From positions 68,138,001-68,202,000 of the forward strand of contig OX597832.1 of NCBI GenBank assembly GCA_951406725.2: a stretch of 64,000 nucleotides of DNA. Direction: 5' to 3'. The notes below the pieces were generated by a model. The model saw only the letters and a list, made by a program, of their open reading frames with translations. It searched no databases and was not told the origin of the DNA. Source of the stretch: Octopus vulgaris (taxonomy: Eukaryota). Positions within the stretch are counted from its first letter, which is position 1. The number at the start of each line of letters is the position of its first letter. Shown piece by piece: positions 788-54,127 of this stretch. The position numbers were made by a program, and so were the translations under genes.

Positions 788-1032
788 CAATGTATATGTA
801 TATACATATATATATATATATATAATAATAATAATAATAATAATAATAATAATAATAATAATAATATAATAATAATAATAATGATAATAATAATAATAAT
901 AATAATGATGATAATAATAATAATAATAATAATAATAATAATAATAATAATAATAATAATAAGAAGAAGAAGAAGAAGAAGAAGAAGAAGAAGAAGAAGA
1001 AGAAGAAGAAGAAGAAGAAGAAGAAGAAGAAG
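788..1032. repeat. Compound microsatellite (TA)n-(TAA)n-(GAA)n
   Basis: Directly visible; it accounts for ORFs 787..1083 and 881..1126. Confidence 0.97.
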
Positions 1033-2497
1033 AGAAAATAGAGAAGTTTTTAATAATTCTATTAACAAAAAATTGACAAACATCCCTTACAGCTGTTTCA
1101 ATTCAGACCCTCAGAAAATTAATTAATTTAAAAATTGCTTGAAAGTCGAATCTCTTCAGATGTAGATAAAGATATACGAAATAGGTGTTCAATCTCTGCA
1201 TGTTGAGTAAGCAGCTACAAACCGTTTACTCATGAAAGAACATAGCATATAAATAGTAGAACCCTTAGAGGGGAGTAAAGTTGATTATAATGGAGTCGTG
1301 AGTCGTAAAACAATACACGCATCTGAAGTGTTATGTATAAGAAAGCTCAAGTAGGTGTAATTGGTAAAAATGTTATATTGTGCTGTTATGTCTCTTCTTA
1401 TTAAATCAATATAAACTGTCGCAATGTTGTGAGTTTAAATTCCACCGAGGCCGACTCTTCCTTTCATCCTTTAGGGGTCGATAATTTAAGTACCAGTAAA
1501 CACTGGGTCGATGTAATCGATTATCCCCCTCTCCTAAATTTGAGGCCTTGTGCCTATAGTAGAAAGGCTATAATTAAGGTGGAAGACATTCAGGCAATCT
1601 AATTAAAAGAGAAGTAAGAATATTGACTTAATGTTAGAGTATATAAAAATTATAGATAAAAACATAAAGTACGATAAATAAAAGAAAATAGAGAAGAGAG
1701 TGAAAATAGATAGAAAGAGAAAAATAAATAAATAAATAGAGAATTATAAATTATTACTCTACACTCCCTTAAAAATTTATTATTGAGCTAGACTAATAAA
1801 GACTAAGAACTATTGGACAAAATTTAATTTATACATTTCACATATGCAATGTTCGTATAATGAATTAGCGGATGTAAATATGTTAAGTTGCTCATGTACG
1901 GAGGTATGGTATTTGACATAAATAAATAAATACAAAAATAGGAATTAAAGGGAATAAAAATATGCTAATAAAAGTGATAATAAGAGCTTAAATATGGGTC
2001 AATTCAACAAGTTGAATTTATTAAGAAGAAATATCTAAATAGTTAAATATATAAATAGTTGAATATAAAACTCTCAAAACCGGAATTAGGTTTTAATATA
2101 GAGATGAATGGCTAAAGAAAATCTAGGAATAATCTATTTTAGGGACATACCAAAGCGAAAGCAGATAGAACTAAATAATTGTTAATTTAGAGTGAGTTAG
2201 AAAATAGCGACATGTTTGGTTCATACAGTACAATTAATTCGATTTAGAGGGAAAAGCTTACGAAAAACTAGGAACAAACTAAATTAGGGACTTAAAATTA
2301 TTATACACATGAGATAGACATGCGTATAAAGAGAGAGAAGGGGTATATATAAGAATTATAAAAGTTAGTATCTGCTTACTAGGAGATAATTTAATTGATT
2401 AATTTTCTGAGGGTCTGAATTGAAACAGCTGCAAGGGGTTTGTCAATATTTTAATTAATAAATAATAATTTATTAATTACCTCTCTATTTTCTCATC
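1030..2497 (-). mobile_element. Degraded Penelope-like element remnant with ~100-bp inverted terminal copy and a degenerate hammerhead motif
   Basis: 1031-1125 (agagaaaatagaga...cagctgtttcaattcagaccctcagaaaattaat) is the reverse complement of ~2395-2495. The minus strand at 1081-1166 reads CTGAAGA-gattcgac...gtctgaatt-GAAA-cagctg-TA. The element is flanked by microsatellites and has a SINE nested at ~1425-1565. Confidence 0.5.
1425..1568 (+). mobile_element. SINE fragment, family A (core gcctttcatcctttcggggtcgataaa..agtaccag)
   Basis: tttaaattccaccgaggccgactcttcctttcatcctttaggggtcgataatttaagtaccag...ggccttgtgcctatagtagaaagg. The same core recurs in many other copies in the window, including 1-50. 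Confidence 0.8.
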
Positions 2498-52000: not shown

Positions 52001-54127
52001 CACACATACAAGCACATACATATATATATATATATATATATATATATGCAAATATATATACATATATATTTTTACATGCATACATACACACACACACACA
52101 TAATACATGCGTATATTCCTACTGTACCCATGCATTTCTATACATATATACATACATACGATACACATATACAAGCGTGCACATATAATATTTGAAAGGT
52201 CTTAGGAGAAAAGGTAATCGGGGGGGCTAGGGGAACAGTGGGGTTGGGGGGGGGTTGTAGGGGGGGTTGTCATCAATCAGGTTGCCGGGTAGGTCTATAG
52301 TTCTTGTAGTTCGCATACTTCTTATGCATGCAATTTGGGGAGTGTTCTGAAAATTTGTTAAGGAGAGGGCCTTTGGCGAACAAGATCTCTGCACACGTGT
52401 ATATATATGTGTGTGTGTGTATATATATGGATGCGCGTGCGTGTGTGCACGTGTATGGGTACGCATGTATATGTGTATTTGCGTGTATGTGTATACGTGT
52501 ATGTATGTATGTGTGTGCGTAGATTTGTATATGTATGTGTGAGTGTGTATATATATATATATATATATATATATATATATAGATGGGTGTGTGTATGCGT
52601 ATAAATGCATGTAAGTATGGATGTATGGATGTATGTATGTATGTATACGTATGTATGTGTGTATGTGTGTATGTATATATATGTGTGTATATATGTTTGT
52701 GTATGTATATATATGTGTATGTATGTGTGTGTATATGTATGTGTGTATGTGTATGTATGTATATATATATATATATATATATATATATATATATATATAG
52801 GTATGTATCTGTATGTAGGAGTATATATGTGTGTGTGTGTATGTATATGTGTGTATATATATATATATATATGTATATTTATTGGTGTATATGTATAGAC
52901 TAGCCTCCTAAAGTGTAGACACGAATCTGTAGGTACGAGTACGTATGTGTATATACGTGAACGTATGTAGATGTTTGTATGTATGAATATAACGCGTGCG
53001 TACGTGTATGTGTATGAGTGTACGAATGGGTGAATGTACGTGCTAATGAGTGTGCGTGCGGGAATGAGTACTTGCCTTCTAGTAGACAGACAAATGGACA
53101 TGCAGCCATAGCCAGGATTCTTAGCCTTAGCGATCAAAGATAACAAAAGTAATAAATGAAGATAATAAAATTAAAATTAGGGAACGGGCCTGTATTGGAT
53201 TGTATATATATATATATATATATATTTGTATGTATGTATGTGTGTATGTGTAGGTATGTATAGGTACACATGTGTATATGTATGTGTATGTATATGTGTG
53301 TATGTATGTATGTGCACACATGTATATATGTGTATGCGTGTATATGTATATATATATATATATATATATGTACATAGGTGTATGTGGGTGTATGTATATA
53401 TAGGTGTAAATATGTGTATATAGGGAACTAGGTGTGTTGTGTGTGCATGAGTGTATGTGCGTATGAATATATATTTTTCTGTGTATATATGTATGTGTGG
53501 TCGTGGGTATATATATATATATACATGTGTGTATGCGTGCATGCATGGGAGTGAGTGTATGCATATATACGTGTGTGTATGTGTAGACAGGTATAGGCAT
53601 GTGCATGTGTATAAATTCGTATATGTGGGCGGGTGTATGTATGTGTGTATGTAGATATGTATGTATGTGTGTATATATGTATATGTATATATATATATGT
53701 ATATATATATATATATATGTATGTATATATATATGTGTATATGTATGTGTATGTAGATACGTATACATGTGTGTATAGGTATAAGTGAGAATCTCCTTAT
53801 TTACCTATAACTCTATCCCCCCATTTTTTTATATATATATTTTTATATATATATATATTTTTTATATATATTTTTTATTTTTTTATTTTTTTATTTTTTT
53901 ATTTTTTTATTTATCTATTCCTTCATCTAACTTACCACTGACTCCTTGACCACTCCCCCAAGTATGATATTTTGCGCTATGCCTACCCCCAAAAAGTCCC
54001 CCACCACCACTCCTTTAAACCTGCCTAAATGTATAAATGCTAATACAATTCTTGTTAAATAGCTTCCTGAAGATTTCTCTTGAATGAAACAGTACTAGTC
54101 CTGTAGAAGCTCCTTCTATATAATAAA
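49035..54127 (-). mobile_element. 5'-truncated Penelope-like element: last ORF codons, ~3.2-kb low-complexity 3' region with hammerhead, and a 1.75-kb inverted copy of the 3' end
   Basis: 49035-50812 is the reverse complement of 52390-54127, differing mainly in repeat lengths. The minus strand at 52389-52273 reads [38 protein letters not shown], resembling the LLNKxSE..CxH terminus of Penelope GIY-YIG ORFs. Confidence 0.75.
54061..54111 (+). ncRNA. Type I hammerhead ribozyme (mirror copy at 49051-49101, minus)
   Basis: agcttc-CTGAAGA-tttc-tctt-gaat-GAAA-cag-tactagtc-ctg-TA-gaagct. Stem III is one substitution from the palindrome caggactagtcctg; the first stem II pair is mismatched. Confidence 0.72.

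Follow-up and report, generated by a model that had tools for sequence, protein, structure and literature searches.

Penelope-like elements (PLEs) leave copies of a standard layout, in which partial tandems are combined with a 5'-truncated copy in inverse orientation and a tail of 30-40 bp on one side only (10.1101/2021.04.23.441226). Truncated PLEs have also been held responsible for single hammerheads and for opposite-strand pairs 100-700 bp apart (PMC4209133); both this truncation layout and the scattered single hammerheads of truncated PLEs are already published. One PLE protein favours AT-rich DNA, and its hammerhead requires this protein (PMC11167929). An active retrozyme is defined by at least two tandem units with a hammerhead in each. 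The animal non-LTR retrozymes form tandem constant monomers giving circular RNAs, the mussel repeats being 350-390 bp long (PMC7229834; 10.64898/2026.07.22.740005). In Octopus vulgaris, PLEs make up 6.83% of the genome in 190 families, and ribozymes are unmentioned there (PMC13282606 supplement). No description of octopod PLE hammerheads was found in the literature searched; preprint supplements, outside that search, may list cephalopod families.

The window analysed here, a stretch of 64 kb, had been described in an earlier note as host to a population of short non-coding, non-autonomous families with hammerheads. Our results support Penelope-type hammerheads in several mutually unrelated families and give no support to such a population. 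Probably, the inserts are the 3' ends of several Penelope-like families, copied into TA repeats, 5'-truncated and often accompanied by an inverted or tandem partial copy. In the 12357/7983 family this 3'-end origin is established; in the remaining families it is likely. All nine motif stretches are present where the earlier note put them, and they correspond to eight insertions, because 49051/54061 are the two arms of one inverted repeat. The features referred to below are:

1030 to 2502, minus strand: ~1.36-kb copy (1030-2389) with 113 bp copied in inverse orientation (2390-2502) and (AAG)n/(ATA)n at the 3' end
2731 to 3100, minus strand: short insert ending at (TA)n, hammerhead not recognisable
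7836 to 8110, both strands: fold-back pair of 12357-family 3' stubs, cores at 7983 (plus) and 7964 (minus)
11882 to 12060, minus strand: short insert flanked by (TA)n tracts, with the layout of a minimal hammerhead at 12008
12200 to 12967, minus strand: 5'-truncated copy of an autonomous PLE, 3' end at (TA)n
12857 to 12967, minus strand: remnant, the last 37 codons, matching PLE GIY-YIG endonuclease (tblastn, phmmer)
37385 to 38094, plus strand: insertion with (TA)n on both sides
37788 to 37846, plus strand: deviant hammerhead-like motif, core at 37794, with 5-6 extra nt before stem II
48046 to 48493, minus strand: 5'-truncated main copy from a high-copy family, with its 3' end next to (TA)n, ORF-free here
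48299 to 48360, minus strand: intact type I hammerhead motif (48353), predicted cut between 48306 and 48305
48494 to 48537, minus strand: pseudo-LTR, a partial copy of 44 bp lying upstream, with 98% identity to 48065-48108 and a spacing of 429
48536 to 48628, plus strand: 3' end repeated perfectly in inverse orientation over 93 bp (partner 48045-48137)
49030 to 54195, no strand assigned: single ~5.1-kb insertion with inverted arms of ~1.75 kb each (49030-50812, 52390-54132) and (TA)n on both sides
60570 to 63480, minus strand: 5'-truncated coding PLE, used as in-window control, (TA)n on both sides

The hammerhead motifs are real and occur in excess of chance, and one of them is an intact type I motif. 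Chance was controlled by 200 local dinucleotide shuffles. With the strict type I descriptor, a single match was obtained in the real sequence (48353, minus strand) and none in the 200 shuffles. A loosened descriptor, which was defined after the sites had been inspected, gave five matches at four insertions (1159, 37794, 48353 and 49095/54067), compared with a shuffle mean of 0.31 and maximum of 2. Core and stem II only were matched five times against a shuffle mean of 0.17, exceeding all 200 shuffles. Two core-plus-stem-II matches, 3670 and 40242, are absent from the earlier note and may be due to chance.

Only at 48353 are the core CUGANGA/GAAA/UH and helices I, II and III all intact, with 7 bp in stem I, 4 bp plus an inner helix in stem II and 4 bp in stem III. 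The earlier note had reported CTGA(N)GA, GAAA and UH cores for at least five inserts or families and weaker cases at two further sites. Each of the other seven insertions violates one or more of the strict descriptor's rules: three match the loosened pattern only and the remainder are broken. At 37794 the extra nucleotides follow CUGAUGA, the base of stem II is open and helix III is near-palindromic. In 49095/54067 the first pair of stem II is U.U, followed by 3 bp, and at 1159 stem I is interrupted and helix III palindromic. In the 12357 motif A9 is replaced by C, the minimal layout at 11976-12014 has two core mismatches as read by eye, and stem II is absent from 2870-2922, which no descriptor matches. 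In the comparison with Rfam, no site reached the gathering score of Hammerhead_1 in the regions of 48353, 37794 and 7983, and a hammerhead is absent from the 150 listed of 377 rows of the window-wide scan, where microsatellite matches dominate. The best-formed motif (48300-48359) scored 17.4 bits under a gathering score of 34, and the hammerhead family is absent from the 9 Rfam matches at 37794 and from the 18 at 7983. No tRNA was found in the 64-kb window.

The surroundings of the motifs agree with several points of the earlier description. The 3' end adjoins (TA)n in six of the eight insertions, against a background in which 32% of the bases outside TA are no more than 250 nt away from a (TA)6+ tract; the exceptions are 1159, next to AAG/ATA repeats, and 7983, next to none. 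Likewise, direct or inverted copies of the end occur in six of the eight (48353, 37794, 49095, 7983, 1159 and, weakly, 2913, where 2733-2789 pairs with 3040-3096 at a score of 36.5 and a shuffle maximum of 29.5). None was seen at 12357 or at 12008, and an inverted end was not found in 11882-12060. Five unrelated families were also upheld by comparing 260-nt neighbourhoods: the alignment of 12357 with 7983 clearly exceeds shuffles, and the remaining pairs above shuffle level are attributed to common TA tails. The size of 0.2-0.7 kb proved wrong for 49051/54061 and 1159, which are too long for mini-elements. The lack of an ORF was confirmed in two stretches, 48046-48627 with a longest stop-free frame of 70 aa and 37385-38094 with one of 72 aa, and is wrong for 12357, which has a GIY-YIG remnant.

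The insertion at 37385-38094 contains a 57-bp inverted copy (37385-37441) and direct repeats of 162 bp (37445-37606 and 37933-38094; spacing 488, 93%). These repeats, like those of 44 bp at 48353, exclude the hammerhead, which is present once per insertion or, at 49095/54067, once per arm (49095 minus, 54067 plus), and no tandem array of 430-490 bp was found in the window. A tail of ~60 nt is seen on the right arm only of 49030-54195, and a dispersed repeat (1416-1565) lies inside the 1030-2389 copy. The coding PLE has the layout of the inserts, namely an inverted 3' copy (188 bp, perfect), a one-sided tail (~35 nt) and (TA)n flanks. Its 544-aa ORF (61661-63295) combines RT, Zn finger and GIY-YIG, and no hammerhead core was found in its 3' region.

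Coding sequence upstream of a hammerhead, a GIY-YIG end, was detected in one of the five families. Within 12200-12967 the order is GIY-YIG C-terminus, ~500 nt of non-coding sequence and the decayed hammerhead 12357, so that the remnant lies ~500 nt upstream of the motif on the same strand. The remnant peptide shares 23 of 36 residues (64%) with P0245 (tblastn 62%, E 1e-8) and matches P0242 with a tblastn E of 3e-15; phmmer gave E values of 4e-4 and 1e-8. P0245 belongs to the PLE-type proteins and has both Zn finger and GIY-YIG, the Pfam score of the latter (18.3 bits) being below the cut-off of 22.6. From a full HMMER search with the 53-aa peptide, P0242 and P0245 were retained among six matches, and the four others were rejected because they are repeat proteins in which RT and GIY-YIG domains are lacking; a word-indexed protein search and Pfam gave nothing for this peptide. 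The stubs 7983 and 7964 were assigned to the same family by a score of 132.5 versus a shuffle maximum of 70.5. Both end at the hammerhead, 7983 without the 5' strand of stem I; 12357 is truncated differently from these two, and all three copies retain stem II. As judged from the sequence, the 12357/7983 family represents 3' ends of a longer PLE. Random 5' truncation of longer PLEs, which the earlier note had named as refuting its view if found in every family, is clear in this one; no ORF could be linked to the 48353 and 37794 families. A search for the 12357-family pattern returned 14 metagenome loci, none resembling the window by blastn. Upstream of 48353, 37794, 49095 and 1159, probes from few PLE lineages revealed no remnant of an ORF, and a profile built from 120 relatives of the window's PLE gave no significant remnant outside the 61661-63295 ORF.

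In public runs from three organisms the 48353 family is abundant, with 1270, 1226 and 432 contigs assigned to it. Exact-pattern scans found no locus for the 48065 repeat in viral, metagenome and genome collections and none for the 37450 repeat in viral contigs. Recurrence of the ~430-bp unit at constant length, proposed as a check in the earlier note, is not what the listed contig ends show, since other junctions and run-on past 48496 are among them. In the window, the 429-bp junction has a 3-nt microhomology, TTC being common to both sides. Among 24 of 226 loose ends listed, run-on past 48496 was seen only in run X19 (organism D), where five contigs continue with different sequence (median 32 nt). 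The longest has 44 unaligned nt (record 14), so that a parent of ~0.5 kb is compatible. The 5' ends vary among copies: one X1 contig switches strand from 48146 to near 48396, one X5 contig ends at 48355 and passes into (TA)n, and the joints 48131>48541 and 48239>48559 are each a bare 3'-end hairpin. As a weak hint of 5' truncation, summed contig depth, which does not equal copy number, declines from 3' to 5' (Spearman -0.65 in X1 and -0.77 in X3), with no significant slope in X19 (rho -0.32, p 0.22). X5, guessed to be RNA, has no cover at 48403-48528, which carries no weight either way. An ORF start at the 3' end of this family was rejected, as it needs a minority deletion and the common 48103 variant is a stop in frame.

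Among the listed changes of the family, none falls in the 13 core bases, whereas 2 of the 28 stem bases (both giving G.U) and 30 of the 389 bases outside are affected; the chance of finding no core variant is 0.35, and no two-sided stem change is listed. Six of the 12 listed indels lie in loop II. Helix III is near-palindromic, with a self-pairing energy of -11.2 kcal/mol. It is predicted to be almost absent in the monomer, and folding of the motif would therefore depend on a partner copy or on protein.

For the probable origin from PLE 3' ends, published PLE work suggests how the inserts could have formed. The GIY-YIG of the element would nick AT-rich DNA, and the RT would start near the RNA's 3' end and halt early; restarts or template jumps would then yield the pseudo-LTR, the inverted copy and the one-sided tail. 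Because it is seated in the terminal repeat, the hammerhead would be carried along, and most copies here would be dead. Counted against this reading are the ORF remnants not found in four families with probes from few PLE lineages, the short run-on listed for X19 only, the non-significant depth slope in X19 and the coding PLE, in whose 3' region no hammerhead core was found. Another explanation is that all motifs but 48353 are chance matches in AT-rich repeats, and the missing Rfam gathering scores, unremarkable folding z-scores (-1.1 to +1.7), the post hoc loose descriptor and the failure of 2870 in every descriptor point that way. However, the loose and the core-plus-stem-II counts beat all shuffles, the motifs lie 60-320 nt from the 3' ends of inserts with PLE layout, and the 12357-family copies retain stem II, so we consider chance very improbable. 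The perfect terminal inverted repeats of 93 bp could also mark MITE-like DNA transposons with hammerheads as passengers. Here, the differing lengths of the inverted arms among copies (joints 48131, 48146 and 48239), the internal direct repeat of the end, the same layout around a coding PLE and the GIY-YIG remnant of one family make us give this explanation almost no credence.

A different view is that 48353, and perhaps 37794, are short non-autonomous PLE derivatives, dispersed kin of the non-LTR retrozymes, that PLE proteins moved in trans and that were 5'-truncated as well, all other sites being ordinary stubs. Neither unit contains an ORF, both have a copy of the 3' end joined head to tail (spacings 429 and 488), and the abundant 48353 family shows variants that spare the core, keep G.U in the stems and favour loop II for indels. 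Furthermore, non-autonomous PLEs such as MRC1 are known, and animal retrozymes have been argued to stem from pLTRs (10.64898/2026.07.22.740005). Yet the family extends past the junction in X19 and other copies end elsewhere, each insertion has a single hammerhead versus the two or more of an active retrozyme, and the lack of core variants is not significant and would be seen in the ends of autonomous PLEs as well. We regard this view as rather unlikely. It is similarly doubtful that 48353 is a very abundant dispersed, TA-targeted, non-autonomous PLE derivative of ~0.5 kb in several octopods, a SINE-like partner of PLEs with a near-canonical hammerhead, inserting with the complete PLE signature and not in tandem retrozyme arrays.

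For annotation, it should be considered that PLE stubs of this kind are easily mislabelled as SINEs, MITEs or unknown repeats. For the comparison of monomer and dimer, 48353 offers a handy natural hammerhead. If its family is short and non-coding, it would be a dispersed animal case of PLE proteins moving RNA in trans, which has been proposed and not demonstrated in the retrozyme papers; at ~0.5 kb it would be a ready substrate for testing such trans-mobilisation.

In comparison with known systems, the inserts share with animal non-LTR retrozymes the type I hammerhead, a non-coding stretch of 430-490 nt and the proposed PLE dependence, and they differ from them in that each arm has a single hammerhead, the ends are inverted and the 5' ends vary. 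Non-autonomous Chlamys PLEs, e.g. MRC1, are likewise non-coding PLE derivatives forming pLTRs, but they are green-algal and belong to a clade without hammerheads; the inserts of the window show no fixed short length. The metazoan PLE hammerheads (Cervera and de la Pena 2014, PMC4209133) correspond in being type I, in the extra nucleotide after A9 (7983, 12357, 12008), in helix III, which is palindromic at 1159 and nearly so at 48353 and 37794, in the scattered singles and opposite-strand pairs and in high variability. In contrast, 48353 lacks the extra nucleotide and, with 7 bp in helix I and possibly 4 bp in helix III, is nearer to the canonical motif. With 5'-truncated canonical endonuclease-positive PLEs of Neptune/Nematis type, a label given here from the Zn-finger motif in the sequences and not from a tree, the difference is that the coding part is known for one of five families only. 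Otherwise, the pseudo-LTR, inverted copy and one-sided tail resemble these elements with their Zn-finger linker (Craig et al., 10.1101/2021.04.23.441226), as do the microsatellite insertion bias, the hammerhead in the terminal repeat and, in the window's coding copy, RT and Zn finger with a C-terminal GIY-YIG.

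The nine hammerhead-bearing stretches reported in the earlier note were all found in place in this AT-rich, microsatellite-dense window and represent eight insertions, as 49051 and 54061 terminate the two arms of a single insertion built as an inverted repeat. A position at (TA)n, noted there for most of the inserts, holds for the 3′ ends of six of the eight insertions and not for the other two. The direct and inverted end repeats described there are present in 48046-48628 and 37385-38094, and inverted arms in the ~5.1-kb insertion.

Hammerhead-bearing insertions, named by the positions of their cores or stretches, and coding retroelements (PLE, Penelope-like element)
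48046-48628: 48353 insert; 3′ end repeated as a perfect inverted copy of 93 bp and, in part, as a 44-bp direct copy; main body (48046-48493) with hammerhead
37385-38094: 37794 insert; 162-bp direct repeats at a spacing of 488, plus an inverted piece of 57 bp
49030-50812 and 52390-54132: inverted arms of the 49051/54061 insert, one insertion of ~5.1 kb; ~60 extra bases on one arm
1030-2502: 1159 insert; ~1.36-kb copy and inverted 113-bp copy
7836-8110: 7983/7964 insert; fold-back, two stubs related to 12200-12363
60570-63480, minus strand: young, 5′-truncated coding PLE; 544 aa open, with reverse transcriptase, zinc finger and GIY-YIG
54646-57540, minus strand: LINE copy; reverse transcriptase ORF of 525 aa (RVT_1), endonuclease-like frame upstream

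To gauge chance occurrence, the window was shuffled locally 200 times. A strict descriptor of type I hammerheads matched solely 48353 (minus strand) in the real sequence and nothing in the shuffles, and a looser descriptor, chosen after the sites had been seen, gave five matches in four insertions against a shuffled mean of 0.31. The Rfam model Hammerhead_1 scored 17.4 bits on 48300-48359, below its gathering score of 34, and had no match at 37794 or 7983. At position 9 the 12357 core reads C, helix I of 7983 is missing its 5′ strand, the core at 12008 deviates at two positions, and no helix II is present at 2913. The hammerhead signal is therefore real, yet mostly decayed. Two additional hammerhead-like matches comprising core and stem II without helix I, at 3670 (minus strand) and 40242 (plus strand), may be due to chance.

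Variation in the 48353 family was evaluated from 40 of the 42 listed substitution rows, which gave 35 positions after repeats were merged and two in the duplicate arm dropped. Variable positions account for 0/13 in the core, 2/28 in the stems (both leading to G.U), 3/17 in loop II and 30/389 outside; half of the 12 listed indels (6) fall within loop II. This pattern is compatible with a maintained ribozyme and not significant (chance 0.35 for the core). Predicted energies are -13.7 kcal/mol for the active fold and -15.8 for the most stable one. Since helices I and II are predicted to be stable in the monomer, where helix III has a probability of 0.02-0.03, and the helix III strand is predicted to pair with that of another copy (-11.2 kcal/mol), cleavage is predicted to require dimerisation or assistance by a protein.

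The families had also been considered non-coding. On the strand of the 12357 motif, ~500 nt upstream of it, there is an open stretch; a full HMMER search with this stretch returned six matches, two of them relevant. P0245, which reads as the C-terminal half of a PLE protein with zinc finger and GIY-YIG motif, shares 23/36 residues with this stretch; by tblastn it matches 12857-12967 (E 1e-8), its other significant match being only the window's own PLE ORF. This makes the 12357/7983 family the end of an autonomous PLE, and the non-coding claim falls here. For the other four families no coding remnant was found with probes covering few PLE lineages. The coding PLE at 60570-63480 exceeds the Pfam cut-offs for RVT_1 and GIY-YIG, and its closest relatives are ~60% identical. 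The 3′ end of this PLE recurs as a perfect inverted copy of 188 bp, a tail is present on one side and (TA)n on either, which shows the same layout and target for a coding PLE of this genome; a hammerhead core was looked for in its 3′ region and not found.

Four public runs yielded 1270, 1226, 432 and 26 contigs on 48025-48650 (organisms A, B, D and A, respectively). In the three large runs the main body is fully covered at a summed depth of ~1e3 to 8e5, which is not a copy number; the family is thus abundant in three organisms. Recurrence of the ~430-bp unit at constant length had been suggested as a check. Among the 24 of 226 loose contig ends listed, at least five contigs in run X19 (organism D) extend past 48496 into sequence that differs from the direct repeat (as much as 44 nt in record 14), at least one in X1 flips from 48146 to near 48396, and one in X5 (record 28) ends at 48355 and passes into (TA)n. 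Two joints place 3′ ends head to head without body, and the window's own junction in the 48353 insert has a 3-nt microhomology. Such ends and joints point to 5′ truncation at varying positions rather than to a monomer fixed at 429 nt. In X1 and X3 depth declines toward the 5′ side, in X19 not clearly so, a weak hint of truncation. In the few copies at hand, 5′ ends lie at the hammerhead's 5′ edge, not its cut site, in 7983 and in the contig of X5 that ends at 48355, ~12-18 nt upstream in 7964, and away from the edge at 2390, 48396 and 48496.

The observation is real and its explanation ordinary: the inserts are probably truncated PLE ends. A short non-autonomous parent of the 48353 and 37794 families, both among the four without a detected remnant, is a less probable alternative. 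For truncated PLE ends, the most likely course is that a PLE protein would nick AT-rich DNA, that PLE RNA would then be copied from near its 3′ end, and that early stops and restarts would leave truncated, tandem and inverted pieces. A lizard PLE in vitro prefers AT-rich DNA, its tail is explained by internal priming, and its hammerhead is protein-assisted and dispensable for insertion (PMC11167929); by analogy, this mechanism may apply to the window inserts.

Other repeats accompany these inserts. The LINE ORF at 54649-56223 has its best named relatives in the octopod Argonauta hians (58-60% identity), which points to a probable octopod host, and several repeats may resemble those of Octopus; a second, decayed LINE fragment lies at 25166-25697. 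Broken plus-strand frames occur at 19006-20342, a putative non-LTR (RTE-type) reverse transcriptase, and at 26932-27602, a putative Pif1/Helitron helicase end. A ~600-bp repeat in (AAT)n tracts (17416-17956 and 28242-28838; bases 17416-17538 form a 123-bp partial copy in inverted orientation) resembles the PLE pattern in layout and has no hammerhead match. Further structures are a MITE-like element at 40872-41825 (280-bp inverted ends, 87.5%, flanking CCCTAA-like repeats), 169-bp inverted repeats (95%) ~790 bp apart at 44883-45838, a ~100-bp near-perfect hairpin adjoining (TA)n at 24720-24830, and a ~180-bp dispersed repeat with many copies and two tandem dimers (1416-1565, 5160-5396, 14993-15224, 18374-18771, 43060-43472, 44119-44515).

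Non-LTR retrozymes are described as tandem repeats yielding circular RNAs, also in mussel (PMC7229834), and their origin has been placed in pLTRs, the partial tandem copies of PLE ends, by a preprint of 2026 (10.64898/2026.07.22.740005). Neither the tandem arrangement nor the constant length of retrozymes was seen in the window inserts, which are therefore not classed with them. The O. vulgaris repeat annotation comprises 190 PLE families, with no ribozyme term in its supplement (PMC13282606), and 235 Rfam hammerhead matches are reported for the giant squid. A description of octopod PLE hammerheads was not found in the literature searched, which included few subscription papers and repeat databases. 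PLE insertion layout and microsatellite bias, as well as non-autonomous Chlamys elements, were described by Craig et al. (10.1101/2021.04.23.441226), and scattered single hammerheads and opposite-strand pairs were traced to truncated PLEs by Cervera and de la Pena 2014 (PMC4209133). The inserts probably belong to this already known kind, truncated PLE ends with hammerheads.
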